The notes: generated from the letters alone by a model not told the origin. 64,000 bases of DNA from Candidatus Anstonellales archaeon (GCA_038890745.1 JAWAFD010000001.1:64001-128000), one strand, 5' to 3'; numbered from the stretch's first letter, positions 22,169 through 52,031 are shown. A program made the numbers and translations.

Positions 22169-22184
22169 TGTAACTATGGTTACA
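22169..22184. promoter_or_regulatory. Palindromic box, copy 1
   Basis: TGTAACTATGGTTACA, 22 bp upstream of TTTAAAAA (22207) preceding the ComF-like gene. Confidence 0.75.
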
Positions 22185-22235
22185 ATGGAGGCGAAGCTTG
22201 CTTACATTTAAAAATAAATAACGAGTAAGAATGGC

Positions 22236-22915
22236 ATGGCTGTTGATGCCATTGATGGATGGTATAGGGGGCAAAAAGGAAAAATTTCTAATGAAATAAT
22301 TCCTATTTTTTCGTTAGGCCATTATAAACGTAAAGATGAGGGTGAAGACGAACATTCAAAAGATATCAACCTTTTTTACAAATATGGGTATAAAGACCTT
22401 ATGGATAGGTTTAATAGTAGGTTCAAACAATTGTATGAGAGGCGTTTTAAATCCGATATTGACTTTGATTATGTTTGTGTTTGCCCAACAAGTAAGAAGG
22501 ATCAGTTAATAAATATATGGAAAATATGGTAAAAGAATTTGGAAAGGATACCGGAATTCCATACAAGAGAATATTGAGGAGAAAAAGGGATACAAAACAG
22601 CAGCATACTATGGAAAAGTCTGAAGATAGATATGAAAATGTCAAAGATTCGATATCAGTCGATTTTGATGTCTCTGGCAAAAATATTTTAGTTTTTGATA
22701 ATGTCTGCATTAGCGGAGCAACTTTTGATGAGGTTTTGTCAAAATTAAAAAAGGCGGGAGCTAATAAAGTAATTTTCTTTTGTCTGGGGTTGGGTTCAAA
22801 AGCAAAGGAGAGTGATTTTGATATCAACAAAAATTTTAAGCATAAAGCATCCCATATCATAGAAAACTGGCATTGGCCAAAGGTACCCAAAGCTAAAAGG
22901 ATTTCTCGCAAATAA
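22236..22915 (+). pseudogene. ComF-like phosphoribosyltransferase split by a 1-nt frameshift
   Basis: ORFs 22236-22532 and 22517-22915 join if one base is added near 22510; PRPP-loop-like ILVFDNVCISGATF..LKKAGA. Confidence 0.7.
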
Positions 22916-23594
22916 AACTACTAAGCTTAATTTTATTAACTCGTTTCAGCAAAGCTAGGATATCATCAACATCTTCAACAAACTCCGCACCGTACCTTTC
23001 TCTTGCTAACATCAAACCTTCATTCGGGTAGATGCCTTCTTTTTTAGCACATAGCAACATTTTACCTTGCTTATACGCAACTGAAATCTGATTCATAGAA
23101 CCGCCTTTTATTTTACTAGCAACTAACAAAACAGCATCGGCTAAACCGGAAGTAATCCTATTTCTAGAAGTATAAGAAAACTTTGTTCCAAAAAATTCTG
23201 GATGATGTTCGCTTAGGATCAGTCCTTGGCTTGCAATTTTTTTGAACAGCTCTGCGTTTTCTTCAGGATAGAGATGATTAAACCCAGAACCAAGAACGGC
23301 AATCGTTTTTCCTTCGGCAGAGAGACATCCCTCATGTGCTGCGGTATCTACCCCTCTTGCACCACCGCTAACTATAATATATTTCCTCTTAGCTAACTCG
23401 TATGCAATATTATAAGCGAATTCGATCGCTATTTTATTAGGATTTCTTGTCCCCACGATCGCAATCATTCTCCCTCTGTTAGCAAGAGAGATATCTCCTG
23501 AATAATACAGAACCTTAGGAGGATTCTCTATTTTCCTTAGATTATTTGGATAATTTGGGTCATTGATAGTTATAGTTTTTATTTCGAGCGTCAT
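22893..23594 (-). CDS. dprA: DNA-processing protein DprA/Smf
   Basis: YP..L..I.NPPKVLY, AIVGTR, VSGGARGVDTAAH, IAVLGSG, YPEEN, RNRITSGL; start placed at MTLEIK. Confidence 0.92.
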   Translation of the reverse strand: MTLEIKTITINDPNYPNNLRKIENPPKVLYYSGDISLANRGRMIAIVGTRNPNKIAIEFAYNIAYELAKRKYIIVSGGARGVDTAAHEGCLSAEGKTIAVLGSGFNHLYPEENAELFKKIASQGLILSEHHPEFFGTKFSYTSRNRITSGLADAVLLVASKIKGGSMNQISVAYKQGKMLLCAKKEGIYPNEGLMLARERYGAEFVEDVDDILALLKRVNKIKLSSFICEKSF

Positions 23595-23682
23595 ATTAAT
23601 AAGTCGCATTACTGATTTATAAATTTTTGTAAGCTTTAGTTCCGAAGCCAAAACTTTTTAATATTATTCGAGAAATAGGTTT

Positions 23683-24978
23683 ATGAAAGTCCTTCTTATA
23701 GGCCATGGGGCTAGGGAGCATGCGATCGCTGAGCAGATTGCAAAGAGCTCTGTTCTTTATGCATACATGGGCCACAAAAATCCTGGAATAGCAAGGCTCG
23801 CGGCGAAGTATTTTATTGGGGATATTACAAATCCTGAGATGATAGGTTTTTGGGCAACAACAGAGGGAATAGATATTGCGATAGTTGGGTCAGACCCTTC
23901 TCTGGCTGCTGGCGTAACGGATGCGCTTTTGCGGGCAGGGGTTGCTGTTGCATCACCAACAAAAGAAGCGGCGAGGATAGAGTGGAACAAAGCCTATGCG
24001 AGAGAACTCCTAAACAGGCATAAAATACCTGGCTCACCAGAACATTTTGTTGTGAGAAGCGAAGAAGAACTGAAAAAAGCGTTCAAGGAGTTTGAGGAAG
24101 TTGCTGTAAAGCCAACCGGGCTGACCGGTGGAAAGGGAGTAAAGGTGATGGGAGACCATTTTAAAAACAAAAACGAAGCGAAAAAATATGCAGAGGAGAT
24201 TTTGAAAAAAGAAAAGGAGGTTGTGATTGAGGAAAGGCTTGTTGGAGAGGAGTTTAGCTTGCAGGCTTTTGTTGATGGCTCGCGGATAAGCGCCATGCCT
24301 CCGGTTCAAGATTTTAAAAGGGCATTTGAAAACGATGAGGGACCAAATACGGGAGGCATGGGGAGCTACAGCACAGGCCAGCTCCTTCCATTTATGGAAA
24401 GAAGGGATCTGGAGGAAGCAAAGGAGATAATGGAAAAAACAGTCAAGGCAATGGCAAAAGAAGGGGTTCCGTTCAAAGGGGTTCTTTATGGAGGGTTTAT
24501 GATTACTTCGGATGGAGTAAAATTAATAGAATACAACGCAAGGTTTGGGGACCCGGAAGCGATGAATGTCCTTCCTTTGCTCAGAACAGAGTTTGTTGAA
24601 ATACTTTGGAGCATTGTTGATGGCCGGCTTAAACCTGCTGTGTTTGCTGAGAAAAACACGGTTGTGAAATACCTTGTACCAAACGGATATCCTGATAAAC
24701 CAAAAAAAGACGCTGAAATAAAAATAGATGAAAAGTGCGTGTGGGATAAAGGGGCGAAGCTTTACTTCGGTTCTGTTTATGAAAAGGATGGGAAGGTTTA
24801 CACAACAGGGTCAAGGGCGGTTGCGCTATTCAGTAAGGGAGAGAGTTTGGAGGAGGCTAGGTTTACAGCTGAGGGTGCAATCATGTGCGTAAAGGGGCCG
24901 CTTTTCTATAGAAAGGACATAGGAACAAATGAGAACATAGAAAAGAAAATAAGGAGGATGAAGGAAATAAGGGGATAG
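23683..24978 (+). CDS. purD: Phosphoribosylamine-glycine ligase
   Basis: GHGAREHA, GGKGVKV, GPNTGGMGSYS, EYNARFGDPE. Confidence 0.95.
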   Translation: MKVLLIGHGAREHAIAEQIAKSSVLYAYMGHKNPGIARLAAKYFIGDITNPEMIGFWATTEGIDIAIVGSDPSLAAGVTDALLRAGVAVASPTKEAARIEWNKAYARELLNRHKIPGSPEHFVVRSEEELKKAFKEFEEVAVKPTGLTGGKGVKVMGDHFKNKNEAKKYAEEILKKEKEVVIEERLVGEEFSLQAFVDGSRISAMPPVQDFKRAFENDEGPNTGGMGSYSTGQLLPFMERRDLEEAKEIMEKTVKAMAKEGVPFKGVLYGGFMITSDGVKLIEYNARFGDPEAMNVLPLLRTEFVEILWSIVDGRLKPAVFAEKNTVVKYLVPNGYPDKPKKDAEIKIDEKCVWDKGAKLYFGSVYEKDGKVYTTGSRAVALFSKGESLEEARFTAEGAIMCVKGPLFYRKDIGTNENIEKKIRRMKEIRG

Positions 24979-24984
24979 AAGAAA

Positions 24985-26190
24985 ATGATGAAAAAAATAT
25001 GCGCGGTTGTTTTATTTTTTATTTGCGTTTTCTCAGTTGGGGTTTGGGAGGGAACCTTTGAAAAAAGATGGGTTGTGAACACGACCCCTAACTCAGAGAA
25101 ACTGATCCTGAAAGGTGTTTTTATTGCAGACTCTCCATATCAGAATATAACGATTGTTGAAACAAGCATCGCAACGGACACGAAAAAAGAAAATGAGAAT
25201 TATTACGTAGTTTATGAAAGAGACTACCCGGAAAGAGAAAATCTTGTGTACGCAAAAGCAAGGGTTTTCTCCTGCTACGCGCCGAAGATTAAAGAGGACC
25301 CGTTGCTCACCGGCCAGCCGATTTTTTCTGAGAATGAAAAAACAATGTACAATGAATTCATAAAGGCAAAGGCGGATGGACTAAAAAAAGAAACCGTTCT
25401 CGAAACAATGGTCGCGCTGAATGATTTCGTGCACGAGTATGTAAATTACAATGAATCCGCTGCAGAAGAGAACAGCGCGATAGAGGTGTACGCAAATCCA
25501 CAGGGTGTATGTGTGGAGTACGCGCACCTTCTCATGGCCATGCTTAATGCTGTTGGGATAGAAAATAGAATGGTATATGGATATGCATACTCAAAAAAAT
25601 GGGAGCCGCATGTTTGGGTTGAGGCGTACATACCTGGGTATGGTTGGATGGATGTTGACCCAACATATGGGCAGGTTGGTTTTCTAGATGGAAGAAGGAT
25701 TGCAATGAACATAAACACAAAAAAGGAACGAATATATGATTATGTTCAGCTGAAGAATGGGGAGGTTGATTTTGAATACTCCCTTTACACAAACCCAGAA
25801 CATGAAGGGGATTTTGACCTTGTTACTATCAACATCTCGTACAACTGGCCGTACTTTATAGTTAGTGTGGAAAACAAAAACGATTTTTATGTATTTGGGG
25901 CTTACGAAATAAACTTCCCGGCAAACATAAGCGATTCTGAGAGAAAGACTATTATTTTAAGGCCGCGCGAGGCCGCTGTTTTTAAATATAGAATAAATGA
26001 GGGGGAGCTAAGCGATGGGTATGTGTATTTTGTGGATATAAAGGCAAGGTTTGTGGATGATGTAGAAGAGAAAAGGTTTGAGATAAGAAAGCCGGCTGTT
26101 GTTGTTGAAAAACACAACAAAGAAAAGGAGTGGTGGGAAATAATAATAGAGGAGATAATGAAACTATTCGGTCTCTATTCTGGGAGCTAA
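24985..26190 (+). CDS. Secreted transglutaminase-like protein
   Basis: Signal peptide; catalytic triad GVCVEYA, HVWVE, DPT. Confidence 0.85.
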   Translation: MMKKICAVVLFFICVFSVGVWEGTFEKRWVVNTTPNSEKLILKGVFIADSPYQNITIVETSIATDTKKENENYYVVYERDYPERENLVYAKARVFSCYAPKIKEDPLLTGQPIFSENEKTMYNEFIKAKADGLKKETVLETMVALNDFVHEYVNYNESAAEENSAIEVYANPQGVCVEYAHLLMAMLNAVGIENRMVYGYAYSKKWEPHVWVEAYIPGYGWMDVDPTYGQVGFLDGRRIAMNINTKKERIYDYVQLKNGEVDFEYSLYTNPEHEGDFDLVTINISYNWPYFIVSVENKNDFYVFGAYEINFPANISDSERKTIILRPREAAVFKYRINEGELSDGYVYFVDIKARFVDDVEEKRFEIRKPAVVVEKHNKEKEWWEIIIEEIMKLFGLYSGS

Positions 26191-26904
26191 ATAGTATTTT
26201 GCTAGCGCGCCCTCTACATTGTATTCTAATCTTAGAGGTCTGTCTGTTTCTAAATAAAGCGTAACAATGTCTGAGCCTTTCGCAGCTTTTAGTATATCCT
26301 CCAAATACTGAAGCGGAAAGGATGCTTTTGCCCCATTCTCAACATCCATTCCAGCAACTCCTTCATCATCCTTTTCTATATGCGATTTAAGCTCGCCGTT
26401 CTCGCTTTTTACCTCAGCATCCAATCCATCAGGGGTAAGAATAAACCTGATGTGGCTGGAAATGAGCTTTGCATCGTTTATTATCTCATTCAATGCTTCT
26501 GCTGTAAGTTTAATGCTGTTGTTGTATTCTATGGATGGTTCTTTTGAAACCCCTTCGCTCAAGTCAAGGAGAGGAATCTTGAATGTTTTTTTTCTTTTCC
26601 CATCCTCAAACGTAACAACAAGCCTATTCTCTTCTGTTTCGAGGGTAAGTTTTTCCTCTGCCTTTCCTCGCTTCAGGATTTTCTTGAAGTAGTCTATATC
26701 CAGTCCAAGCACCTCATTTTCGCTCTCGTATTCTAAAAAGATGTTTTTCGGCATGTTGAATATAACCATCGAAATCTGGCTTGGGTCCATTGCAATTAAG
26801 GAAAGCCCATCTTTCTTTGCCTTAAACTGGCCTTCGTCAACAAGGTTTCCGACCGCATCCACCGCTCTTGCAAAACCAGCCGCGCTAGAATAGCATAATC
26901 TCAT
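26164..26904 (-). CDS. pcn: DNA polymerase sliding clamp PCNA
   Basis: AMDPSQISMV, KIPLLD, YYLAPRIE; GGTGA SD before MRLCY. Confidence 0.95.
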   Translation of the reverse strand: MRLCYSSAAGFARAVDAVGNLVDEGQFKAKKDGLSLIAMDPSQISMVIFNMPKNIFLEYESENEVLGLDIDYFKKILKRGKAEEKLTLETEENRLVVTFEDGKRKKTFKIPLLDLSEGVSKEPSIEYNNSIKLTAEALNEIINDAKLISSHIRFILTPDGLDAEVKSENGELKSHIEKDDEGVAGMDVENGAKASFPLQYLEDILKAAKGSDIVTLYLETDRPLRLEYNVEGALAKYYLAPRIETE

Positions 26905-26964
26905 TTTCTCACCCTTTTTTGGAAATTGATTGAATGTTTTTAAAAAGGTTTGGATGATGGCCAA

Positions 26965-26980
26965 TGTAACTATAGTTACA
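26965..26980. promoter_or_regulatory. Palindromic box, copy 2
   Basis: Perfect palindrome TGTAACTATAGTTACA between divergent pcn and the large surface-protein gene. Confidence 0.8.
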
Positions 26981-27018
26981 ATGAATACATTTTAAAAATT
27001 CTTCTACGAATAAAATAC

Positions 27019-30000
27019 ATGAAAAAATTTCTTTTGTTTTTGCTCGTTTTGGGGTTGGCGTTTTCTTTGGAAGTTGAGTGGGAAGTTGAAAAGATACCTG
27101 ATTATGTAAGCAAACCTTGGAATGGATATTGGAGTAATGCATACTACAAAAATGGTATGTTGAGTACAGAGATGCATCCCTCTCTTGTTTCTCTAAACCT
27201 TGACACGATATCTGCATCCGACACCGACGTATTACAAAAAATAAGCTATGCAAAACAGCAGTACGCAATCGCAAACACAAAAAAACAACAATGCGAGTAT
27301 TATTTTGTTTTTAAAAACGGCGGGATAGAATTCGGCAAGGATATTTTGGCTAGAGTTTATAATACTGCAAGCAATGCGTATTACGATGCAATGAAGGAGA
27401 ATAAAAGTGACCTCACTGCATTCTCTTGCATGGTATGCATAAACCTCGGGTTGTGCAATACGCCGCAAACATTAATATTATACTCTGCTTGCGGGGTGTA
27501 TGTTGCTTTTGATATCCTGAGTTCTTATCACGCATGCGAAGAGTACGGTACTTATTGGAAGGGAACCATGACCTCTTCTGCCGAAGCATTAGAATTGAGC
27601 GCAAAAAAGGCAAACGAAAAATATGCTATTCTTAAGGAAGCGTATGAAAATCTAACATGGGCTGGGATGTGCAACGCAAACTACACATGGAGCGGGAATC
27701 AGGAATGTAATAAAGTTGCGCAGGCCTTACAGGAGGTTGAGGCTGGAAGCCTATCCTCATTGGGGGAGCATGAAGGGATTAGGAGAATGATTATTGGGTA
27801 TGATAAAGCTATGCGTAGCACAGGGCTGATAGACACCTCAAACTACTCAATAATTATGAATAAGATATGGAATGTTGCGATCCCATACGCTAAAAGTGAA
27901 ACAGAGGAATGCGCTAAGAGTATGAAAAACGCGATGGGTGAATACGAAGGAGCGAAAGCAGAAACAGAGAGCAAAAAGGCTGCCGCAAAGGAAGCGGTTG
28001 AGAAGTGTGAGGATGAAAAGCTGAAGGAGATGGAAATAACCATCCGTGGTGGGGAGATGGGAATAGGCTCAACAGAAGGAATAGCAAGGGATTGCGAATC
28101 TGCTGAGAAATACTATGCGACTGCTGAAACCCAGTGCAAACTTTCAGCAACAGCGTACGACAGTAAAGGAGAGGACTGGCTTCTCCTCGCTTTTCAGTAT
28201 GAAAAAGGATGTTATGAAAATTTTGAAAGAGCAGAAGAAATGGCAACAAATGCGCACAACACTGCAAAGGCAACCGTTATTCATCTTAGGGAAACCGCAT
28301 CTAAGGCGATTGCATCTGCGGAGGGAAAAGCAGACCCAGCCATACTCCAACAGGCAAAGAAAGAGTTTGATGCTGGTGATGCTGCATCGACATTAGGGGA
28401 GAAAGCATACCATTACAACAAGGCATGGCAACTTGCGAACGCTGCCATTGCTGTATTCGCCCCTCAAAATGTAACAAACCCACAGATGGAAGAGCAGTTC
28501 AACATTCTTAAAGCAGAGGTTGAGGGGATGCTTTCAAGGGCAGAGGCTGATGGGATAGATGTAACAACTGAAAGAAGCCTTTACGAATATTATGTTTCCC
28601 TTGGGCCAACAGAACAGGCGATGAGCGGGTTGAGAAGGATAATGGATATGATAGTGAACAAAGCAATGATTGCGTATGGGGATTTAGACTATCTCCGTAA
28701 GGAGATATACGAGCGCATAAAAGAAGCAAACGGGGCTTTTGATTATCTTCTTCCAGAACTAAACGCAATAGAGGCAGGATACATCAAGGATGGGAAGATT
28801 GATTTTGTAGCAGCTCTTGGCCATCTTGCTGTAATGAAAGAGGGCTACCTAAGTATTTTGGAGGAGATGGAGAACCAGAAGGAAGAGGCATACTCTGGAA
28901 GCATAATATGGACGTACTCAAAGGATTTTGAACCGGCACGTTTGGATGAAGAAAGCCATATCATAATGTATATATACGCTACAAACCCAAACGCATTCAA
29001 AGTTGCCGGTGGGGAGAAAGTATTCGATTTCCCATTTGAGGTAATGCAAAGCGAAGTAAGCGGCGAGCTTGTTGGGATTATCTCTGATGGCCAAACCCTT
29101 ACCCTCTACCCAAAAGACTTCGAACCATTCGAATCAAGAACATACACTGTAAGCACTTCACAGATAATTGCATCAACAACAAACCAAGAGGTTTACGCTG
29201 TTGGGTATGATGGAAAGGCGGATGTAACCGATAGCCGGCTTGTGGAGTTCTTAGGGCCAAGCCAGGGGCTTTACCTTCCAGATGAATGGGAAGGTGTAAG
29301 CATTGCCGGGCAAACCTATGACGCAAAATCAGGATTCATAAACAAAAAATTCAATGCTGATTTCTATGAAATAGAAGGAAAGTACACTATTCTGGACGCA
29401 TACGATTGGGAGGAGAAAAACCACAACAGCATTACAATAGGAACGACAACTACGCTTAGTTATGATATAGAGATAGACTCAAATATACATATGGATGAAA
29501 TGAAGTTTGCGGTTGATGGAGAGAAGGTAAGCGCATACGCAGATGGAGGCGCGTCCGTTAAAGTTGTTGGGAAGGAAATTTTTGTATACGATGTTCCTAA
29601 AGGGAGCGTAACAGTCCATGTAAAATATGAGATCAGCAATGCTAACGAGTATATAAATCAGAAGATAAAACAACTTAACAACGAAATTGATGGTGGGAAA
29701 TGCCCGGATGCATGGCAGGCTCTGAATGACGCAACCCTCGCCTTCCAGAGGGGGGATATAAACACAGCAATGGAGAAACTGAAGGAGGCTGAAGCGCTTT
29801 GGGAGAAATATTTAAGAGAAGCATCCAAGGCAGAAGGAGAGTATGAAAAGTATCTTGCTTATGTAAATGAGCAGCTTGAGCAGATAAAGAAGGCACTTGC
29901 AAGAGCAGATGAGCTTGGATTGGAAGGGGGTTTTGTGGATAGCCTTAGAGAGAGGAAAAATAGTATAGAAAATTTCTTGGCCGGGCTTGAAAATTTGGGT

Positions 30001-30918
30001 TTGGAAGAAAAAGTTGCTCGGTTAAAAGAATTTGATAGGAATTGGTTGGAAAAAGAAGCCGGTAAGTTCCTGAAAGATGCATTCAATGAAGTTGGGAAAA
30101 CTAAAAAGGAGTACTACGCGCTTGGTGTTGTTGACTCTTTGCTTGAGGGGTATTTCAATGAATTTGAAGCAAATTACAAGAAAGCAAGGGCAAGTGAAGG
30201 GGATTACACACCACATGTTAATACCTATGCGAGCTTGCTTAAAATACAAAATGCTTTTGCTCAGACAACGGCGAGTAAGGATGGGAAATTAAAAGAAGCG
30301 CTCTCTCAATTTGAGGGACTAAAGGAAGAAGTCAACGCACTTATAGCGAAATATACAAACGAGTATAATGATGGTAAAAAAACACCATACGAAACACTGT
30401 TCCAGTTCTTACCAAACTACTACTCTGAGAAGCTTTCAGGATTAGAAAAGGAGGTTAAAAAGACGAATAAGCCAGAGGAGATACTAAAAAGAGTTGAAAA
30501 ATTAAAAGGATTAAAGGAGGAGCTTGAGAAAAAGATGGATGTTTTAAGAAAAAGTGCTGAAGAGATGCTTCAAACTGTAGAAATAGAATACGCAAAAGCA
30601 AAACCAAATTTAGATGAAAAAACAAAGCAAAGCATAGAGGGCGCGATAGAAACAATAAAACAAAACATCGCAAACGGAAGGTATGTAAGCGCGATGAACA
30701 CTGCAAATAATGTTTTGATTACTTTAGGAAAAGTAAAGGGTGGTGGGATTAATTTTGTTCTTTGGTTTGGTGTTCTGCTTCTCATTCTCGCTGGTATTTT
30801 CTACTACCTCCGCTCTGGTGGAAAGATCAAGCTCGGTGGTTTTGGTGGGGTTGGTGGATTGTTTAAGGAGGAGAAAAAGGAGGCGAAACCGCTCAAAAAA
30901 CTAGAGAGGGTTAAATGA
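27019..30918 (+). CDS. Large (about 1300 aa) membrane-anchored surface protein
   Basis: Signal peptide MKKFLLFLLVLGLAFS, Cys pairs, long helical/coiled-coil stretches, beta-rich middle, C-terminal TM and charged tail. Confidence 0.7.
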   Translation: MKKFLLFLLVLGLAFSLEVEWEVEKIPDYVSKPWNGYWSNAYYKNGMLSTEMHPSLVSLNLDTISASDTDVLQKISYAKQQYAIANTKKQQCEYYFVFKNGGIEFGKDILARVYNTASNAYYDAMKENKSDLTAFSCMVCINLGLCNTPQTLILYSACGVYVAFDILSSYHACEEYGTYWKGTMTSSAEALELSAKKANEKYAILKEAYENLTWAGMCNANYTWSGNQECNKVAQALQEVEAGSLSSLGEHEGIRRMIIGYDKAMRSTGLIDTSNYSIIMNKIWNVAIPYAKSETEECAKSMKNAMGEYEGAKAETESKKAAAKEAVEKCEDEKLKEMEITIRGGEMGIGSTEGIARDCESAEKYYATAETQCKLSATAYDSKGEDWLLLAFQYEKGCYENFERAEEMATNAHNTAKATVIHLRETASKAIASAEGKADPAILQQAKKEFDAGDAASTLGEKAYHYNKAWQLANAAIAVFAPQNVTNPQMEEQFNILKAEVEGMLSRAEADGIDVTTERSLYEYYVSLGPTEQAMSGLRRIMDMIVNKAMIAYGDLDYLRKEIYERIKEANGAFDYLLPELNAIEAGYIKDGKIDFVAALGHLAVMKEGYLSILEEMENQKEEAYSGSIIWTYSKDFEPARLDEESHIIMYIYATNPNAFKVAGGEKVFDFPFEVMQSEVSGELVGIISDGQTLTLYPKDFEPFESRTYTVSTSQIIASTTNQEVYAVGYDGKADVTDSRLVEFLGPSQGLYLPDEWEGVSIAGQTYDAKSGFINKKFNADFYEIEGKYTILDAYDWEEKNHNSITIGTTTTLSYDIEIDSNIHMDEMKFAVDGEKVSAYADGGASVKVVGKEIFVYDVPKGSVTVHVKYEISNANEYINQKIKQLNNEIDGGKCPDAWQALNDATLAFQRGDINTAMEKLKEAEALWEKYLREASKAEGEYEKYLAYVNEQLEQIKKALARADELGLEGGFVDSLRERKNSIENFLAGLENLGLEEKVARLKEFDRNWLEKEAGKFLKDAFNEVGKTKKEYYALGVVDSLLEGYFNEFEANYKKARASEGDYTPHVNTYASLLKIQNAFAQTTASKDGKLKEALSQFEGLKEEVNALIAKYTNEYNDGKKTPYETLFQFLPNYYSEKLSGLEKEVKKTNKPEEILKRVEKLKGLKEELEKKMDVLRKSAEEMLQTVEIEYAKAKPNLDEKTKQSIEGAIETIKQNIANGRYVSAMNTANNVLITLGKVKGGGINFVLWFGVLLLILAGIFYYLRSGGKIKLGGFGGVGGLFKEEKKEAKPLKKLERVK

Positions 30919-32392
30919 GAAAATCAGAAATGGAGGTTTGCCCCTTCTTTTCTACTTTTTTCTCCATTTTTGGTTTTTTTAGATTAAAGTTTTTTAACAA
31001 AGAGAGCATTTTTTTCTCTTTCCGTACAGCTGACCAGTAGAATGCTTCATCCCTAGTTTTTTTGGTCAAAAGGATGTAGATCTGTCCTTCCTTAATCCTC
31101 CCTACCCTACCCCTACGCTGGATAGCCCTTATCTCGCTTGGGATGGGCTCGTAAAAAATAACAACATCCGCTGAAGGAATGTCAATCCCCTCTTCACCTA
31201 TACTTGAGCACACCAAAATATTGAATTTGTCATTCCTAAAATCCTCAATTATCTGCTCTTGTTGTTTTTTTGTAAACCCTTCCCTCTTCCCAACAAATTT
31301 CTCAGCAGCATAGCCCTTACTCTTCAAAATTGAAAGAAGATAGTTTATCTGGTCTCTGTACTGGACGAATAAAAGTATTTTTTTGTTTTTTAGTTTTTCA
31401 AGAAGTTCTAAAAGAAGGGTTGTTTTTGGATGGTCTTCCTTAGCTATGGAGGCCTCTTGTATGATTTTTGCTGTTTCAGGTCTGCGGAGCAAGATTCTCG
31501 CGGATTTTGATTTTTCGGCCTTTTCCTTCAATTTAGAGATGTAATTCAAGAGCGCAGTAATTCCTTGTGTTTCAAGAAGCTCTGCCATATGGTTTAGATG
31601 GATGATGCAAGTATAATTTAGTAAGAGTTGGAATTTAATTGGGTGGTTTATTTTTATAAGCTCATGCCTTAACAAAAGCAGCTCGCCCTTCTTTTTTAAT
31701 GGAACTGGGATATTGTGTTTTTTAAAAAGAGCAAGGTAATCATCCATCATTTTTTCAATTAGTTTTTTTATTTTCATCTGTGTTTGCGAAAGCTCTGTTT
31801 GAAGCCAGATTATTTTTTTATCCATTACGTACTCCTTAACATCCGCATCTCTTTCTTCCCTTATTTCAACATTTTTTATACCTAAATTCATTACCACTTC
31901 GTTTATACGCTCCTTCTCCCCACCAGGGGAAGCTGTAAGCCCGATGAGAAGGGCGTTTTTGCATTTTTTTGCTATCTTTGTGTATGCGTACTCCCCAACG
32001 GCCCTATGGGCTTCATCAAAAACAATTATGGAAACTTCCTCTGGTTTTAGGAAGGAAGAAAGGTCGTTTTTTATTGTTTGTGGGGTGGCAAAAATAATTT
32101 TCTTAGCATACAACTCCTTTCTCTTTGTTTTTGGAAGCTCACCGGTGATCAAAACAGCTTCGCTACCCTTATCAGTTGTTTTTATAAAACTGTTTAAATG
32201 TTGGAGGGAAAGTGGTTTTGTTGGGGCTAGAAAAAGAAACTTTCCTTGTTTTTTATCAAAGAAAAAATCAAAAACCCCAAAAGCAATTAGGGTTTTGCCT
32301 AACCCAGTAGGAAGGACCACAAGGGTATTACTGTTATTTATTATTGATTTTATAATTGTTTTTTGGTATTCTCTAAGAGGAATTTTCAACAT
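30911..32392 (-). CDS. Hef/FANCM-like SF2 helicase lacking an ERCC4 nuclease domain
   Basis: LPTGLGKT, DEAHRAVGEYAY, TASPG, EEGIDIP, QRRGRVGR; C-terminal PIP-like QTSISDF. Confidence 0.88.
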   Translation of the reverse strand: MLKIPLREYQKTIIKSIINNSNTLVVLPTGLGKTLIAFGVFDFFFDKKQGKFLFLAPTKPLSLQHLNSFIKTTDKGSEAVLITGELPKTKRKELYAKKIIFATPQTIKNDLSSFLKPEEVSIIVFDEAHRAVGEYAYTKIAKKCKNALLIGLTASPGGEKERINEVVMNLGIKNVEIREERDADVKEYVMDKKIIWLQTELSQTQMKIKKLIEKMMDDYLALFKKHNIPVPLKKKGELLLLRHELIKINHPIKFQLLLNYTCIIHLNHMAELLETQGITALLNYISKLKEKAEKSKSARILLRRPETAKIIQEASIAKEDHPKTTLLLELLEKLKNKKILLFVQYRDQINYLLSILKSKGYAAEKFVGKREGFTKKQQEQIIEDFRNDKFNILVCSSIGEEGIDIPSADVVIFYEPIPSEIRAIQRRGRVGRIKEGQIYILLTKKTRDEAFYWSAVRKEKKMLSLLKNFNLKKPKMEKKVEKKGQTSISDFLI

Positions 32393-32444
32393 TGGGGCAC
32401 CCCACACTTCCACTAATTTTTTTATGCAAAGAAATAAAAAAGTT

Positions 32445-32462
32445 ATGTAACTATAGTTACAT
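32445..32462. promoter_or_regulatory. Palindromic box, copy 3
   Basis: Perfect 18-bp palindrome ATGTAACTATAGTTACAT, ending 1 bp before ATG 32464, divergent from the Hef-like gene. Confidence 0.8.
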
Positions 32463-32463: not shown

Positions 32464-32706
32464 ATGATCGTGTATGTTTACGATTTGTTTGGAAGTAATT
32501 TAAAAGAGTATAACAGAACAAAACGTCGTTTTTATTATGAATTGAGAAAAATTTTGGATAGTAATAAACAAATAAATTGGAGGACAAAATCAATGCTCCT
32601 GGCACCTGATAGTGAAGAGCAGAACCTTGATATGTTTTTTAAAAAATACGCTTCTAAAATCATAGTATACAAATTTAAACCACAAACCATAAACCAAATA
32701 ACATAA
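32464..32706 (+). CDS. Small stand-alone Cas2/VapD-like protein (80 aa)
   Basis: MIVYVYDL beta-Asp start, basic helix RTKRRFYYELRK, WRTKSML resembling the Cas2 QxSV strand; judged by eye. Confidence 0.5.
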   Translation: MIVYVYDLFGSNLKEYNRTKRRFYYELRKILDSNKQINWRTKSMLLAPDSEEQNLDMFFKKYASKIIVYKFKPQTINQIT

Positions 32707-41059: not shown

Positions 41060-41083
41060 TTGTTGTAAAAATATTTACAACAA
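41060..41083. promoter_or_regulatory. Inverted repeat, likely TrmB-family operator
   Basis: TTGTTGTAAA-aata-TTTACAACAA between divergent genes, 1 bp before the TrmB ATG. Confidence 0.7.
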
Positions 41084-43161: not shown

Positions 43162-45543
43162 TCATACCTCCCAGTATTTTCTTGTTTTCAAAAATGTTTT
43201 TTGTGCCTCTATTAGATCAACCCAAAAACCAAACTCATCCTTATGTAGCCTTCTCAATATTCTATCTGCTGTTTTTGCGCCGACACCAAAAACAGTTAAA
43301 GCAATGATCGCTTTTTTTCCATATGCACGTGTAAGGTTTGCGCGATATTCTAACTCTTCTTTGTCTGCTTTTTCTGAATAAAGGGTCAGAGGAGAACCGC
43401 ACCTGTGGCATTTTGGCATTTCCTCAACCCTTAGGATCGTTGTAAATCTTGTCGCCCCGCAATTGACGCAAATAAGTTTTACATCCTGGCTTTCAACAGC
43501 ATTTTTGAACGCCTCTATCCTTGCGCTCTCTGGTAAAAACTCAATAGGAAGAGGCCTGGAGAACCTATCAACAATTTTTATATCTGGAACAAAATCAAAA
43601 TTAAAATCAAAATACCTTTTTGCTTCTTTCACTGCCTCCTCATAAACAATCGACCCTTTAAAGAATTTTGCAAGCCTCGGGTTGAATGGCGTGTCCTCTT
43701 TCAAAATACCAAACCTTCTTGCAACATGCGTGAATTTTATGGAAAAGATAAAGCTATCCTCTATTGATTTTTCTGCGAGAGCCCGGATGTTGTATTTCTT
43801 TATTTTATGGATGTGCTCGCCAAGAGGAAAGGGAAGCTTTAGAATTATTCTATAAGCATCAGAAATTCCGTTTGCTTGCTCACCTGTAAGTTCCTCCACT
43901 GCTTTTTTTAAACCGGCCAGGATTGCGTTATTTGCGATCGTTCCTTGACAGGAGTAGTATACCAGGATATCTTCCTTCTCTTCTCCAAAAAGCTCTTTAC
44001 ACACTGTTTGGGCAACTTCTTTACTTACAGGAAGGTCTTCCCCTTTCCATACCGGAACGGTTAGGGCGGCTGAAGAGAGAGGGATTACCTTTATTTCTTC
44101 CTCTAAGCTCGCTACCTGCCACGGTCTTCCTTTTAATATGAATGAATCACCCTCGGATAGTTGGGATGCAAATTTTTCATCTACATGTCCGATTATTGTT
44201 CCGGTTTGAGCTTCTCTGACTGAAAAATATATCTCTTTTGGAATGGTTGAAACATTGTCAAAGTAGTACTTTTTTCCCTTTAAAGTGGCTTTTATTGTTC
44301 CATCCTCATTTAAAAAAATTACATTATTTTCTTCTAAAAATTGTGCAATAATTTTACTTTTTTCAAATGAAAGAGTATAGATGTGCGATTTCTTGAGAAT
44401 TTCATGAACCTTAGTGAAGGGTATTTTTGAAAAAGCAAGCCCAACTATTTGATGGGCTATAACATCGAGCGGGGAGGTATATTCCTTTTCTTCTTCTATC
44501 CACCCTTCCCTTGCTTTTTTTATTATTCCCTCGCTTTCCTTCCTTTCCTCTTCATTCCTTGCGATTATTATTGCCCTTGAAACCTGCCTTAGGGAATGGC
44601 CGCTCCTTCCCATTCTTTGCAGGAATCTACTCACTTGTCTGGGCGAGCCGATCTGTACTACAAGGTCAACATCCCCTATATCTATTCCTAGTTCAAGGGA
44701 AGAGGTTGCGACAATGGCCTTTAACTCGCCCTTCTTAAACTTTCTTTCAGCCTCTTCTCTAATCTTTCTGGAGAGAGAGCCGTGATGAACAAAAGCAAAA
44801 TCAGAGAATAACGAACCGTAAAGCTCTGCCTCGCTTCTTGTGTTCACAAAAATCATTATTTTCTGTTTTTCTGCGAGCGATCGGACAAATTCTTTTATTT
44901 TTTCATCCCCGTATATTGGCTTTACCTCTGCTTTCCACTCTTTCTCCCCTCCTGAAACAACATCGTAATTTTTTCCGTTGAATATCAACTCTGCTTTTTT
45001 TGGGGAGGAGAGGGTTGCGCTAAGGCCGATGGTTTTGAAGTCTGCAAGCTCAGAAAGCCTGGCAAGCCCAAGGGATAGCTGGCTCCCCCTTTTACTGTCA
45101 ACAAGCTCATGTATCTCATCCACTATAACCCATCCAACATTCCTCAGATGCTCCTTGAATTGTGGAAGAACAAGAAGAATTTGAAGGGTTTCTGGGGTTG
45201 TTATGAGCACATGTGGCGGGGATTTTGCCTGTTTTGTCTTTATTTTTGCCGGCGTGTCCCCATGCCTAACCTCTATTCTTATTCCGGCAGCATTCCCCCA
45301 ATAAATAAGCCTTTCTTCCATATCTCTATTCAGGGCTCTTAATGGGGTTATGTACAGTGCTGAAATGGGTTGCTTCTTTTGGATTGCTATTTGCTCAAAA
45401 ACAGGCAGAACCGCGGCCTCTGTTTTTCCTGCTCCTGTAGGTGCTACGATTAAAACATTCCTTCCACTAAGAATAAGCGGGATGGCTTTTTTTTGTACCT
45501 CTGTTGGCTCTTTAAATCTCTCAAGGAATGCTTTTTCTAACAT
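43162..45543 (-). CDS. Lhr-like DEAD/DEAH helicase
   Basis: APTGAGKT, RHGDT, DEIH, SAT, ELGIDIG, QRMGRSGH, C-terminal CxxC pairs. Confidence 0.9.
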   Translation of the reverse strand: MLEKAFLERFKEPTEVQKKAIPLILSGRNVLIVAPTGAGKTEAAVLPVFEQIAIQKKQPISALYITPLRALNRDMEERLIYWGNAAGIRIEVRHGDTPAKIKTKQAKSPPHVLITTPETLQILLVLPQFKEHLRNVGWVIVDEIHELVDSKRGSQLSLGLARLSELADFKTIGLSATLSSPKKAELIFNGKNYDVVSGGEKEWKAEVKPIYGDEKIKEFVRSLAEKQKIMIFVNTRSEAELYGSLFSDFAFVHHGSLSRKIREEAERKFKKGELKAIVATSSLELGIDIGDVDLVVQIGSPRQVSRFLQRMGRSGHSLRQVSRAIIIARNEEERKESEGIIKKAREGWIEEEKEYTSPLDVIAHQIVGLAFSKIPFTKVHEILKKSHIYTLSFEKSKIIAQFLEENNVIFLNEDGTIKATLKGKKYYFDNVSTIPKEIYFSVREAQTGTIIGHVDEKFASQLSEGDSFILKGRPWQVASLEEEIKVIPLSSAALTVPVWKGEDLPVSKEVAQTVCKELFGEEKEDILVYYSCQGTIANNAILAGLKKAVEELTGEQANGISDAYRIILKLPFPLGEHIHKIKKYNIRALAEKSIEDSFIFSIKFTHVARRFGILKEDTPFNPRLAKFFKGSIVYEEAVKEAKRYFDFNFDFVPDIKIVDRFSRPLPIEFLPESARIEAFKNAVESQDVKLICVNCGATRFTTILRVEEMPKCHRCGSPLTLYSEKADKEELEYRANLTRAYGKKAIIALTVFGVGAKTADRILRRLHKDEFGFWVDLIEAQKTFLKTRKYWEV

Positions 45544-45559
45544 AAAAATAAAAAATAAA

Positions 45560-46225: not shown

Positions 46226-46263
46226 ATCACCACCGGAATAAAGATGAAAAGAAAGGTTAATAA

Positions 46264-47391: not shown

Positions 47392-47424
47392 AGAATCACC
47401 ATAGAAAAGAAAAAGGCCTAAGAA

Positions 47425-47583: not shown

Positions 47584-47659
47584 ACAAACCCCTGAAATAA
47601 TTGGGCGGTTAGGTTTTTAAATATTTATATTCATTCGAGCGCTCTCTCCTCAAATTAAT

Positions 47660-48982: not shown

Positions 48983-49006
48983 TATCATAATAATCATTAT
49001 CGTAAT
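48981..49006. promoter_or_regulatory. Tandem quasi-palindrome over the ATPase start
   Basis: ATTATCATAAT-aatc-ATTATCGTAAT between the TATA-like box and the start codon. Confidence 0.5.
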
Positions 49007-49057
49007 CCTGTTTTTAAAACTTTGGGTTTGGGCCCCTCGCATAAAAGACTCTTTCTA

Positions 49058-49417
49058 CTATGACCTGTTATTGTATCCAAAAGCAACACCGACCGGTCTG
49101 GCATTAAAAAAAGCAATGTAATACTCACCGATTACGCGATTTTTCATTTTTATTTTCTTGTTTTTGATAATTTTTCTCGCCTCCTCTTCTGAAATATTGA
49201 TCCTGTTTTTTGTAGCCAGATGACCAAATGTTCTTGCGAAAGAATGTGTTGGTTTGTTTGTGTAAACCAAAATCCCGCGCCTACCTTTGATGTCTATTGA
49301 CATTAATGATTTTGAAAACGCCCTTATCCCTTCTTTCTTTTCCTCAAAAACAATGTTTTTTGGAAAAACGATTCCGAATTTTTCATAAACAAATTTTTTG
49401 AATTCATTTACTCGCAC
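49058..49417 (-). CDS. NIP7/PUA-like accessory protein, paralog 2
   Basis: KPTHSFARTFGHLATKN, similar to 36527-36934. Confidence 0.65.
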   Translation of the reverse strand: MRVNEFKKFVYEKFGIVFPKNIVFEEKKEGIRAFSKSLMSIDIKGRRGILVYTNKPTHSFARTFGHLATKNRINISEEEARKIIKNKKIKMKNRVIGEYYIAFFNARPVGVAFGYNNRS

Positions 49418-50283: not shown

Positions 50284-50334
50284 AAGAATAGAATAAAAAC
50301 AAAAAATTAAAAACAATCTGTAGCATGTTCTTTT

Positions 50335-50712
50335 ATGAAAGAGTTTTTTGTTCAAACAAAAAAACAGGTTGAGGCAATCGATATAACGCACGAAATAGAG
50401 GCAAGAATAGAAAAGAATGCAAAAGCATGTTTGGTTTTTGTCCCGCACGCAACCGCGGCTATAATACTAAATGAGTATGAACCAAACATAAAAAGCGACT
50501 ACGAGAAATTCTATTCCGAGCTTGCGAAGGGGGATTGGAGGCATAACTCCATAGACAATAACGCAGAGGCTCATCTCCTCTCCTCGCTCGTGAAGCCATT
50601 CGCGCTAATTCCATGCGAAAACGGAAAACTTATGCTCGGAACATGGCAGAGGGTTATGCTTCTTGAGTTAGATGGGCCGAGAAGAAGAAAGATTACACTA
50701 ACCACGCTGTAG
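50335..50712 (+). CDS. yjbQ: YjbQ family (UPF0047) protein
   Basis: PHATAAIILNE, NAEAH, LGTWQRV..ELDGPR. Confidence 0.92.
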   Translation: MKEFFVQTKKQVEAIDITHEIEARIEKNAKACLVFVPHATAAIILNEYEPNIKSDYEKFYSELAKGDWRHNSIDNNAEAHLLSSLVKPFALIPCENGKLMLGTWQRVMLLELDGPRRRKITLTTL

Positions 50713-50715
50713 GTC

Positions 50716-51669
50716 CTAATATCTTTCTATTCCATAGTTGGTTAGTTTGTGGTATTTCCCGTTGTTTAGGTATATCAGGGACAGCTCGGTAGAGATTTCA
50801 ACAAAAAAATTTTCATACACAATAGGTGAGGCGATATCTTTCAACGTTATCAATGCTTCCTGTAAATCGTTGTTTTTCACAATTTCCTCTATAAACCACT
50901 TTCTATGTTGCGTGGTCGTGAATACATCCCTCAAGCTAAAAATTATTGAGCTGTTCGCAAAATTTTTTATGCAAACAGGAGAAAAGATAAAGTTGTATGA
51001 TTGAATTCCCGCGCTGGTTAAAAAAATATATTTACCCTGTCTGTTTAGAAGGAAAAGAAAAGGAAAGAGAGCAGAGAGATGTTCCTCACTCAAAAATCTA
51101 ACTATGCTATCTTTCTGCTCTGTATATGTTTTTGCTATGTTTTCTAAACTTGATTCAAGCAAAAACCTGAATTCATAGAGATACCCGACATTTTCTGTAT
51201 GCCTATTTATTAAATGGACAAAAAGAGGGGAGAGGCCAAGAAGGCTTGTGGGATAATCCTCATCAACTGAGAATTTCCCATCTTTTAGTCCCATCCCTAG
51301 CGGGAAATTAAGAATAAAACTACTTATCTTTAGTGGATAAGCAGCCCTTTCTGCTTTTTTGCTGAACTTCTCAGCAACCGAAAGTATCTCATCCTCATCT
51401 GCCTCAAAAATATTTGAGTTAAAGATGTATATTTTTTCAAGCAAACCTACTCTCTCTTCATTAGTTAAGTTAGGTAAATGGTAGTAGGCTATGAGAGAGG
51501 AAAGGATATGCTCCTTTATCCTTTTTTCCAATGGCTCCTCCTCCAAAATATAAGAGAGATTCGCTAAATAGTGCCATTTATTTCTATCAGGGATAACATG
51601 AGAAATTGATCTGCTTATAATACCATCCACTCTTGCTTTATTTAGTGCTCTAAGCATGGTTAAGCCCAT
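50716..51669 (-). CDS. Hypothetical protein
   Basis: 317-aa ORF, no recognised motif. Confidence 0.55.
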   Translation of the reverse strand: MGLTMLRALNKARVDGIISRSISHVIPDRNKWHYLANLSYILEEEPLEKRIKEHILSSLIAYYHLPNLTNEERVGLLEKIYIFNSNIFEADEDEILSVAEKFSKKAERAAYPLKISSFILNFPLGMGLKDGKFSVDEDYPTSLLGLSPLFVHLINRHTENVGYLYEFRFLLESSLENIAKTYTEQKDSIVRFLSEEHLSALFPFLFLLNRQGKYIFLTSAGIQSYNFIFSPVCIKNFANSSIIFSLRDVFTTTQHRKWFIEEIVKNNDLQEALITLKDIASPIVYENFFVEISTELSLIYLNNGKYHKLTNYGIERY

Positions 51670-51723
51670 GGTTATAATTTATATACTATAAAGGTTTTTA
51701 TTCTTTGCTTCTCTATTCTACCC

Positions 51724-52020
51724 ATGGGACCATCAGAAAGGCTTAAGCGCCACTTAACATCAGAAAACCTTTGGTTATATATTCTGAGTTTAGCAAGCAA
51801 AAAACCAGTGTACGCATATGCGATGAGAAAGGAGATAAAAAGGTTTGGGTTTGAGCCTAGTTTAGTTATGCTTTACTTGGTTCTTCCTAGATTGGAGCTG
51901 GCGGGGTACATAAGAAGTGAAATGAGAGGAAGGAGGAAGTACTATATTATAACGAAAAAGGGGAAGGAAGAGCTTGAAAAAGGAAAAAGCGAGATGCGAA
52001 GGGTTTTGGGCCTATTGTAA
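51724..52020 (+). CDS. PadR-family transcriptional regulator
   Basis: LYILSL..PVYAY, LY..L.RLE..GYI, RKYYIITKKGKEEL. Confidence 0.88.
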   Translation: MGPSERLKRHLTSENLWLYILSLASKKPVYAYAMRKEIKRFGFEPSLVMLYLVLPRLELAGYIRSEMRGRRKYYIITKKGKEELEKGKSEMRRVLGLL

Positions 52021-52031
52021 CTATGGTTACA
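52016..52031. promoter_or_regulatory. Palindromic box, copy 4
   Basis: TGTAACTATGGTTACA overlapping the PadR stop, 22 bp upstream of TATTTTAA preceding nreA. Confidence 0.75.

Follow-up and report, generated by a model that had tools for sequence, protein, structure and literature searches.

The palindromes and their neighbouring genes

The window, which is the whole 64-kb stretch of DNA that was analysed, contains exact matches to the palindrome TGTAACTATRGTTACA at 22169, 26965, 32446 and 52016 and none elsewhere. With three mismatches allowed, one extra site is found at 41064 within an A/T-rich stretch. A sequence-only reading of this DNA had reported the four copies; all are exact, their positions are confirmed, and their location between genes or at a stop codon is as that reading described. 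The features around them are as follows.

21995-22168, 57-codon ORF whose TAG stands directly before copy 1
22169..22184, no strand, palindrome copy 1, TGTAACTATGGTTACA, exact match
22236..22915, plus strand, ComF-like phosphoribosyltransferase in two overlapping frames (22236-22532 and 22517-22915)
22893..23651, minus strand, DprA (Pfam DNA_processg_A, 3.6e-60), convergent with the ComF-like gene
23683..24978, plus strand, purD, GAR synthetase (Pfam GARS_A/N/C)
26164..26904, minus strand, PCNA (Pfam PCNA_N and PCNA_C), likely ATG near 26903, longest ORF to 26964
26965..26980, no strand, palindrome copy 2, exact match, in the divergent promoter region between PCNA (minus strand) and the 1322-aa ORF
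27019..30918, plus strand, large ORF of about 1300 aa with a hydrophobic N-terminus, ATG 38 nt past copy 2
30911..32389, minus strand, Hef helicase (NCBIfam NF010337; Pfam ResIII and Helicase_C)
32446..32461, no strand, palindrome copy 3, the ancestral copy, exact match, between Hef (minus strand) and the 80-aa ORF
32464..32706, plus strand, 80-aa basic ferredoxin-fold (Cas2-like) protein, candidate binder
51724..52020, plus strand, PadR-family regulator (Pfam PadR, 3.9e-13), TAA inside copy 4
52016..52031, no strand, palindrome copy 4, exact match, overlapping the padR TAA and followed by nreA
52086..53252, plus strand, NreA DNA repair protein (Pfam Nre_N, 7.8e-68; Nre_C, 2.6e-36)

Hef aligns with positions 17-520 of the 781 in NF010337 (E 5e-154, under the equivalog cut-off) and comprises the helicase part only, the nuclease domain being absent. 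NreA matches its NCBIfam model at 8.5e-72, below the cut-off, and the second ORF of the ComF-like gene (22517-22915) matches Pfam Pribosyltran at 1.3e-6 and NCBIfam ComF/GntX at 1e-9, the latter far below the cut-off. The large ORF has no Pfam or NCBIfam match.

The count of four copies had been judged far beyond chance, and this judgement holds. Dinucleotide-preserving shuffles of the window (n = 100) gave a mean of 0.65 strand-matches and a maximum of 4, none reaching the observed 10, and the genome to which the window belongs (G000; 0.99 Mb in five contigs, 93.8% complete) contains 12 copies, all exact, compared with no sites for a reversed-pattern control. The TGTAACYAT half-site occurs 19 times in this genome, 12 of them within full palindromes. 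Sites with one or two mismatches number zero in G000, an absence of degenerate copies that is unusual for a regulon.

Position relative to promoters

The palindrome is over-represented and non-randomly placed relative to promoters. Copy 1 is followed by an A/T box at +21 and by the ATG of the ComF-like gene 51 nt downstream, and copy 4 by an A/T box at +22 and the NreA ATG 54 nt downstream. Copy 2 serves two directions, with an A/T box at +18 and the PCNA ATG at 60 nt on the minus strand, and an A/T box at +8 and the ATG of the 1322-aa ORF at 38 nt on the plus strand, while copy 3 ends 2 nt short of the 80-aa ORF's ATG and is 53 nt from that of hef. Between palindrome and start codon there are 38 nt at three promoters and 39 nt at a fourth, 51-61 nt at another six, and 2 nt in the case of the small ORF. 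Fixed spacing to TATA-like boxes, which the sequence-only reading had suggested looking for, is confirmed with respect to A/T boxes. Its figure of 20-22 bp is right for the copies at 22169 and 52016 (21-22 nt) and slightly off for that at 26965, where the box is 18 nt away. The activator-like siting that it described applies to most copies but not to the ancestral one, which occupies a repressor position. The deep interior of long open frames holds 22 of 120 sites in 13 genomes, whereas 2318 of 3000 positions drawn at random fall there. In these respects the palindrome behaves like an operator for a dimer rather than a chance repeat, as had been proposed.

Phyletic distribution and conserved targets

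The palindrome is an old element. In a sample of the phylum the exact site was present in 82 of 301 genomes and the reversed-pattern control in none of the 301, and most site-bearing genomes hold one copy. Every family with a site also encodes the 80-aa Cas2-like gene, and from five families (f13, f14, f16, f17 and f20; 156 genomes) both gene and palindrome are missing. At the ancestral copy (32446 in the window) the small gene and that of the repair helicase Hef diverge, and both carry the palindrome class-wide. A TGT-N10-ACA sequence precedes the small ORF by no more than 70 nt at 24 of 30 loci within the order (12 with the exact consensus) and at 18 of 20 loci in other orders (14 exact), the distance from palindrome to ATG being mostly 0-3 nt. 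In single-site genomes the site is found within 30 nt of the small gene at 15 of 26 loci and at 100-150 nt in four more.

Sites are kept upstream of orthologous genes in relatives. The palindrome adjoins radA, which encodes the RecA homologue, as well as nreA, purE and the pyrE operon in all three species of the genus, and lhr in two of the three (sister species). The copy upstream of the large ORF, equivalent to copy 2, is kept in G002 and G003, and that upstream of nreA in G001 and G002. The pcna gene carries the palindrome in G000 and also in G151, of a second family, where mcm has one too. The claim that copies lie upstream of repair and replication genes is borne out by radA, one of the genes named beforehand, and by nreA, lhr and pcna. 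Enrichment at fen1, rpa, mre11/rad50 and uvrABC, likewise suggested, was not seen, as none of these genes adjoins a palindrome among the 12 sites of G000, all of which were examined.

Beyond the genus it is chiefly purine and pyrimidine genes that recur. They include purL (G040, G126, G143 and G158), purF (G026, G136 and G143), purP (G040 and G126) and carB (G136 and G143), and purE is a target both in the window's genus (g1) and in G126. In G178 the palindrome adjoins assorted housekeeping genes that share no clear theme. Across lineages it is hef, the small ORF and genes for purine/pyrimidine synthesis that recur as targets, rather than repair genes, and the DNA-damage induction first proposed is not supported. 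The suggested link with ComF and DprA is weak, as a near-identical strain has neither gene and carries the palindrome about 45 nt before purD; in the X4 strain contigs the 1459 bp after copy 1 are missing (joint 22185->23645), including the comF-like gene and dprA.

The 80-aa Cas2-like protein

The Cas2-like ORF at 32464, already singled out by the sequence-only reading, is the ancestral partner of the palindrome. Among 176 genomes of the order, 156 have it in single copy, regardless of CRISPR. The protein has a pI of 9.7 and is modelled with a pLDDT of 95.3 as a ferredoxin-like fold; it matches no family and lacks a recognisable DNA-binding motif. The top rows of a Foldseek search are Cas2/VapD proteins at a probability of 0.94-0.99 but with E values of 0.008 or worse, and in a wide fold search the best Z was 7.7 and that of Cas2 6.3, the fold being of a generic ferredoxin/ACT/RAM type that is not unique to Cas2. 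Like Cas2 and VapD, the protein shows the same fold order, an N-terminal strand ending ..YD and a predicted dimer with swapped C-terminal strands. The homodimer model scored 0.50 compared with 0.01 for the best of three controls; of proteins solved as same-chain pairs, 20 of 30 reach this mark, and of those solved as single chains 1 of 23 does. Agreement between dimer runs extends to at least 98% of contacts, pLDDT is at least 85, and the predicted interface includes a swapped tail (residues 75-80), with the invariant KR.FYY helix 1 outside it. Passing this mark may reflect likeness to solved Cas2 dimers. None of the residues of the protein clearly co-varies with the half-site variants, and with so generic a fold it could instead work alongside another factor, binding a ligand or serving as a nuclease.

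A role as the Cas2 of CRISPR adaptation is not supported by sequence or locus. Of five small proteins scanned one gives a weak match to Pfam CRISPR_Cas2 and none reaches the cut-off (best E 0.014; 16 bits vs 23.8), and no cas1 or array lies beside the gene, which is situated on contig C1 between hef and pheT rather than in a cas locus. The true Cas1-Cas2 pair of G000, with its 61-repeat array, is encoded on contig C3, away from the 80-aa gene, and profile comparison (hhalign) of the 80-aa protein with this Cas2 gave a probability of only 15.6%.

Candidate binders and alternative roles

On balance the evidence inclines slightly towards the palindrome being the operator of a dimeric, sequence-specific regulator of a DNA-synthesis and DNA-maintenance regulon, confined to one large clade of Micrarchaeia and having the 80-aa Cas2-like protein as its likeliest binder. 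The analysis establishes the sites, how they are conserved and spaced, and their phyletic association with the small gene. From sequence we infer that a protein binds the palindrome, that this protein is probably the Cas2-like one, and also the sign of its regulation and the existence of a signal to which it would respond.

It is doubtful that the binder is instead another transcription factor, for example of the Lrp/AsnC type, and that the small protein is its RAM/ACT-like ligand-sensing partner or a mere target. Among the structural matches, simple ferredoxin-like domains including ACT and RAM (AsnC family, 2ia0) rank as high as Cas2, G000 encodes two Lrp/AsnC-type HTH genes, and genes of the Lrp type adjoin sites in G151 and G158. 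However, both Lrp-type genes of G000 are at least 18 kb from any site, and Pfam AsnC_trans_reg finds no match in five of five small proteins at E up to 10. Across lineages no HTH gene lies consistently beside the palindrome, whereas the small gene does.

The PadR-family regulator encoded at 51724-52020 is an unlikely candidate for the binder, and the small gene and hef would then be its most conserved targets. Copy 4 overlaps the padR stop codon, and the dyad of TGTAA and TTACA half-sites matches the padC operator of Bacillus subtilis PadR as printed in PMC5728393. In that operator the half-sites are 4 bases apart, compared with 6 bases here, and its flanking C/G contacts are not kept in the palindrome. 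Strong PadR orthologues occur in most palindrome-holding families, with only weak paralogues in f13 and f14 (the f13 tally includes the unpublished G195). Nevertheless, with this query an orthologue was found in none of four f18 genomes and was not found in 11 of 13 genomes of f1, the window's own family, and despite these gaps G003, G004, G206 and G288 hold exact sites. G026 (two sites) and G040 (seven sites) are also without an orthologue. Paralogues do exist in G004, G026 and G040, but a Pfam PadR search found no member in G003 (86% complete, two sites) or G206 (93% complete, six sites). Conversely, f27 and f29 have the orthologue and neither the site nor the small gene, and copy 4 lies at the 3' end of padR and not at its promoter.

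The copies could also be architectural or recombination sites, akin to parS or matS or to the cores of cassette insertion and deletion, rather than transcriptional operators, which is improbable. Like the sites of ParB and MatP, which are perfect palindromes of 13-16 bp, the palindrome occurs in 1 to about 16 copies, all of them perfect 16-mers, and some are intragenic (five of six sites in G206, and within the beta-carbonic anhydrase gene in all three species) or lie between convergent genes, intervals that hold about one-tenth of sites, such as the ELP3/ankyrin site shared by G000 and G002. Both kinds of location count against the operator reading. Single cassettes can be bracketed by two copies, for example toxin modules (PIN and MazF) in G126 and EamA in G143, and the 1459-bp comF-dprA indel between strains starts 1 nt after copy 1. 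However, unlike parS and matS the copies are phased with promoters by fixed spacing to A/T boxes and start codons, and in most genomes there is just one, at the start of one gene. Genes as a whole are strongly depleted of sites. Sites also occupy orthologous places in three species, and no recombinase is associated with them. A search of G000 (93.8% complete) for ParB_N (PF02195) gave no matches at E up to 0.01, and the sole orc1/cdc6 is at least 36 kb from the nearest palindrome (the only Cdc6_C match is at C1:165856-166155 and the nearest sites at C1:116016 and C1:202316, in a five-contig assembly with weak GC skew). The parS-like alternative raised in the sequence-only reading is weak, with no ParB N-domain found in G000, no clustering apparent at orc1/cdc6 in this fragmented assembly and mostly single-copy genomes, and like PadR it accounts for the palindrome less well than the Cas2-like binder.

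Very improbable is an RNA hairpin (6-bp stem, 4-nt loop) located in leaders or at 3' ends and bound or cut by a Cas2/VapD-like protein. Ribonucleases are known among Cas2 and VapD relatives, and seven G000 copies coincide with the upstream gene's stop codon or come shortly after it. However, one arm often varies without a compensating change in the other (e.g. TGTATC in one arm only), as would be expected of a degenerate operator read by a protein but not of a stem in RNA. The A/T box directly upstream of the palindrome at the small gene means that a leaderless transcript would exclude it, and where a copy precedes TATA boxes in a divergent region (26965 and 32446) it would escape transcription.

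A putative regulon for nucleotide supply and DNA maintenance

The operator bound by the Cas2-like protein would resemble the Thermococcales glycolytic motif (TGM), a near-perfect palindrome found at many promoters of one archaeal clade and bound by the TrmBL1/Tgr dimer, which is associated with repression when placed downstream of TATA and with activation when upstream of BRE/TATA. Both placements relative to TATA are also seen for the palindrome. It differs from TGM in sequence, in its clade (DPANN Micrarchaeia), in a candidate binder without HTH and in its targets, which concern nucleotide synthesis and DNA maintenance instead of sugar metabolism. It is also reminiscent of the bacterial LexA/SOS and PurR regulons in that a palindromic box is dispersed before recombination/repair genes and purine genes; here one box covers both gene sets and the promoter architecture is archaeal. 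A LexA/SOS system proper was rejected, as a search of G000 for LexA (PF01726) returned only two sub-cut-off winged-helix matches (19.2 and 16.8 bits vs 23.7).

It is proposed that the ancestral copy, flanked by a TATA-like box and the small gene's start codon and abutting the divergent hef TATA box, would when bound by the small protein shut off the protein's own leaderless promoter and also govern hef. Extra perfect copies would then have been recruited 8-9 or 18-22 nt upstream of A/T boxes in several lineages including this genus, and those upstream of BRE/TATA are likely to act in activation. The recruited targets would here comprise radA, nreA, pcna, lhr (sister species), purE, the pyrE operon and purD (sister strain), together with a putative large secreted protein and small unknown ORFs, and elsewhere mainly purL, purF, purE, purP, purN and carB. 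Because this target set spans nucleotide synthesis and DNA maintenance, the regulon, if the operator reading is true, would tie nucleotide supply to DNA replication, recombination and repair.

Distribution of the palindrome

The 16-bp TGT-N10-ACA palindrome is a genuine, deeply conserved operator-like element. Its four copies in the window, which the sequence-only reading had called near-identical, are exact; none of 100 dinucleotide-preserving shuffles attains this count, and a search that allows three mismatches adds a single, A/T-rich window site at 41064. Across the whole genome of the Candidatus Anstonellales archaeon (G000; 989,524 bp in five contigs, 93.8% complete, the window being C1:64001-128000) the pattern TGTAACYATRGTTACA is found at 12 sites, two mismatches bring no extra site, and the reversed pattern, scanned as a control, has 0 sites. 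The 9-mer half-site occurs 19 times in G000 and 12 of these copies lie within full palindromes; there is therefore no halo of degenerate copies. The sites are as follows:

22169 in the window (copy 1): 3' of the stop of a 57-codon ORF and 5' of a ComF-like phosphoribosyltransferase gene, which is in two frames and convergent with dprA
26965 in the window (copy 2): flanked by PCNA and by a 1322-aa ORF that matches no family
32446 in the window (copy 3): between the Hef helicase gene and a divergent 80-aa small ORF (32464..32706, + strand)
52016 in the window (copy 4): overlapping the TAA stop of the PadR gene, 5' of nreA
Outside the window: 5' of an 84-aa ORF that is followed by radA
Outside the window: between purE and a 35-codon ORF
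Outside the window: 5' of a 182-aa ORF that is followed by pyrE
Outside the window: 5' of an 88-aa ORF
Outside the window: 5' of a short antitoxin-like ORF and a Doc toxin gene
Outside the window: between ELP3 and an ankyrin gene, whose ends converge
Contig C2, 263522-263537: within a beta-carbonic anhydrase gene, coding for FVTIVT directly before the CSDSR motif
Outside the window: within a 521-codon ORF of unknown function

The genes originally assigned to the four window sites were called correctly; the Hef match (NCBIfam NF010337, E 5e-154) covers the helicase portion only. The carbonic anhydrase palindrome is identical in three species, G000 and its sister species G001 (locus L051) and G002 (L059), and adjacent synonymous positions vary.

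The proposed link of the palindrome to ComF and DprA does not hold up as a conserved feature, because a strain of a related hot-spring population (sequencing run X4) lacks both genes. In the X4 contigs window position 22185 is joined to 23645 with six other letters between, and a contig of depth 12.6 lacks 1459 bp, dprA and the ComF-like gene included. On the left this gap has its edge 1 nt past copy 1, and a weak look-alike of the palindrome is found just inside the right edge, at 23628-23643. The palindrome of this strain is situated about 45 nt 5' of purD, whose A/T box lies about 18 nt past it, and purD as the neighbour of copy 1 fits the purine theme seen across lineages. No change inside three of the palindromes is among the differences listed for X4 and a second run, X3. 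The ComF-like gene itself (22236-22915) is made up of two ORFs that overlap and differ in frame, 22236-22532 and 22517-22915, and X4 has a 1-nt insertion behind 22881; the split may reflect a frameshift, pseudogenisation or faulty assembly.

Promoter architecture

The palindrome is separated from the start codon by 38, 38, 38 and 39 nt at the 1322-aa ORF, purE, the antitoxin and the 182-aa/pyrE operon, where the A/T box lies about 8-9 nt past the palindrome. A second class with gaps of 51-61 nt comprises the ComF-like gene, hef, nreA, PCNA, the 35-aa ORF and the 88-aa ORF, and here the A/T box starts at +18 to +22 with the exception of hef (+4). The gap at the radA operon is 113 nt and its A/T box starts at +22. 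At the small ORF the gap is 2 nt and an A/T-rich box lies immediately 5' of the palindrome, which, given a leaderless transcript, would therefore be located at about -19 to -3, the classical position of an archaeal repressor. By a crude ORF-based measure that counts some spurious frames, 22 of 120 sites from 13 genomes are deep within long open frames, versus 2318 of 3000 random G000 positions.

A GC-rich spacer, GGAACC..GG.CCCC, connects palindrome and A/T box at three promoters of the +22 class and occurs nowhere else in G000; it was rejected as a second, independent motif, being present only at these palindrome-bearing promoters. The leader of the radA operon contains a 9-bp inverted repeat, GCCAAAAAA ... 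TTTTTTGGC, which follows the A/T box and precedes the 84-aa ORF (C2:139330-139360).

Conservation of the site and the small gene

With at most one mismatch, the pattern is found in 27 of 41 related genomes across 12 families, and in a sample of 301 genomes of the phylum the exact pattern is present in 82 and the reversed control in 0. Most genomes carry one or two copies and some genera 6-16. Genomes with a single copy have it where a homologue of the 80-aa ORF begins, at a distance of up to 30 nt in 15 of 26 loci and of 100-150 nt in four further ones. The 80-aa gene is itself single-copy and is encoded by 156 of the 176 genomes of the order (60 of the 63 high-quality ones) and by 123 of the 301 in the phylum sample. 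Families without it (f13, 0/75; f14, 0/54; f16, 0/7; f17, 0/15; f20, 0/5) are the very ones without the site, and the site was found without the gene in G001, G138, G150 and G256, which are 82-91% complete. Upstream of the gene, TGT-N10-ACA is present at 24 of 30 loci within the order and at 18 of 20 in other orders, in most cases with 0-3 nt to the ATG. Variants of the site at this gene are altered in half-site positions 4-5, and because the changes are often single-sided (two variants, in G149 and G196, are symmetric) a protein operator is favoured over an RNA stem. In many lineages the pair of site and gene is accompanied by a divergent hef and a short conserved leader, and the hef/small-ORF pair is the conserved core of the regulon.

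The hef leader (window 32390-32416, - strand) consists of TAGTGGAAGT followed by a G-run, about 28-30 nt from the palindrome and before the hef start codon. It occupies the same place in relatives, is kept across orders and may represent a transcript start and ribosome-binding site.

Target genes in relatives

Sites at orthologous places are present in all three species of the genus at the radA operon, nreA, purE, the pyrE operon and the carbonic anhydrase codons, which bears out the sequence-only reading, whose proposed checks included copies upstream of radA and conservation among relatives. The sites at hef/small ORF, the 88-aa ORF and the ELP3 end are common to G000 and G002. An Lhr-type helicase gene has a site in G001 and G002 and none in G000, where it is located in the window at 43162-45543 (NCBIfam ligase-associated DEXH helicase, 1.8e-111). 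Nucleotide-synthesis genes are the recurring neighbours of the site in family f9 and further afield, and sites in individual relatives include:

purL, 3' of an NFACT gene: G040 (one mismatch), G126, G143, G158
purF: G026, G136, G143
purE: G126
purP: G040 (ATG within the palindrome), G126
purN: G126
carB: G136, G143
Permease-adenosine deaminase operon: G151
PCNA and MCM: G151
DHH (RecJ-like) gene: G136

The targets in G178 are a housekeeping mixture with no evident theme, and in G206, which belongs to another order, five of six exact palindromes are intragenic, in genes for a metallophosphatase, an SNase, ThiI, a transketolase and a dihydrolipoamide dehydrogenase-like protein (L121, L127, L130, L133, L143). 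The idea of a regulon was correct in kind and, in part, in content; the regulon is better described as one of DNA synthesis and maintenance, which includes nucleotide synthesis, replication, recombination and repair, than as a damage regulon.

Lineage-specific CAGTTTCC repeats adjoin the palindrome in G136 (L161, L162, L165, L166) and a common 25-nt stretch does so in G126 (L147, L149), which suggests composite promoter modules copied within a genome. Palindrome pairs 0.7-1.4 kb apart also surround single genes or toxin-antitoxin cassettes (MazF, PIN, EamA, NFACT) in G126 (L146, L147), G143 (L160) and G158 (L176).

The candidate DNA-binding protein

The leading candidate for the reader of the palindrome is the small ferredoxin-fold protein encoded by the 80-aa ORF. 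It has no match in Pfam or NCBIfam and gained no name from Atlas or cluster look-up; among five homologues a single one matches Cas2, weakly (E 0.014), and the protein's own profile retrieves only chance-level PDB chains (E >= 0.9). Foldseek places Cas2 and VapD on top with a probability of 0.94-0.99, yet with E-values of 0.008 or worse, and an independent wide fold search yields only generic ferredoxin, ACT and RAM-like folds (best Z 7.7, Cas2 Z 6.3), with E2/EBNA1-like DNA-binding barrels absent among the best 50 matches. The label 'Cas2-like' is therefore fair but not exclusive. G000 also has a complete CRISPR-Cas locus on another contig (C3:22000-35500), in which type III-like genes and a true cas1-cas2 pair, its cas2 canonical (Pfam 7e-15), accompany an array of about 61 repeats, and profile comparison detects no sequence kinship between this Cas2 and the 80-aa protein (probability 15.6%).

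The protein is basic (pI 9.7; 15 K+R versus 8 D+E), and D7, Y16, K20, R21, F23, Y24, Y25 and S43 are invariant in an alignment of 16 homologues. Its homodimer model scores 0.50 versus 0.01 for the best of three controls, with contact agreement of at least 98% between runs and pLDDT of at least 85. The 0.50 mark is attained by 20 of 30 proteins solved as same-chain pairs and 1 of 23 solved as single chains, counts that hold only roughly as the author's own alignment was used, and the score may stem from likeness to solved Cas2 dimers. In the model the interface is formed by strands 1, 3 and 4, helix 2 and a swapped tail, leaving helix 1 with the invariant KR.FYY exposed; such a dimer could read both half-sites, 10 bp apart. 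Residues and half-site variants showed no clear pattern of covariation among 60 distinct proteins.

That PadR reads the palindrome has some appeal, as its orthologues are common in site-bearing families and the half-sites TGTAA/TTACA are the same as in the solved operator of Bacillus subtilis PadR, in which they lie two bases closer (PMC5728393). Several site-bearing lineages are however without a PadR orthologue, G003 and G206 show no PadR-family gene at all, and two families possess the orthologue and neither the site nor the small gene. Alternatively, a different factor may bind the palindrome with the small protein as its ligand-sensing partner. A parS-like role, also raised at the outset, or a recombination role is a weak reading, for which intragenic copies, copies between convergent genes, cassettes with a copy on each side and the indel edge at copy 1 can be cited, but against which stand the promoter phasing of the copies, the single copy in most genomes, the failure to find ParB in G000 and the distance of orc1/cdc6 from the sites. 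GC skew and gene-strand curves of the five-contig assembly gave no usable origin or terminus signal.

For the small protein as the reader, it is tentatively proposed, as a possibility somewhat short of probable, that a protein of the Cas2 fold was exapted to become a master regulator that binds DNA sequence-specifically across Micrarchaeia. Its swapped-tail dimer would contact the 16-bp palindrome through the exposed KR.FYY helix, shut off its own gene and join hef, recombination and replication genes and nucleotide synthesis in one DNA-synthesis regulon. If true, this would be an archaeal analogue of E2F/MBF logic.

Implications

To our knowledge hardly any work has addressed gene regulation in DPANN archaea, archaea are without a LexA-type system and the Cas2 fold has not been known to yield transcription factors. 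A genome search finds no LexA encoded in G000, and full-text searches of the literature on archaeal transcription, Micrarchaeota and the motif found no description of the palindrome or of a Cas2-fold regulator. An exact, testable cis-element is now to hand, together with a single, easily expressed 80-aa candidate regulator and a shortlist of target promoters through which purine and pyrimidine synthesis is tied to radA, nreA, pcna, hef and lhr. The perfect conservation of the element across a class-level clade makes it a marker for the evolution of a regulon that ranges from one to about 16 sites per genome. Should the small protein bind the site, the Cas2/ferredoxin fold would gain a new role in DNA binding, and there would be a way into the question of how archaea that are reduced and depend on a host match nucleotide supply to DNA replication and repair.
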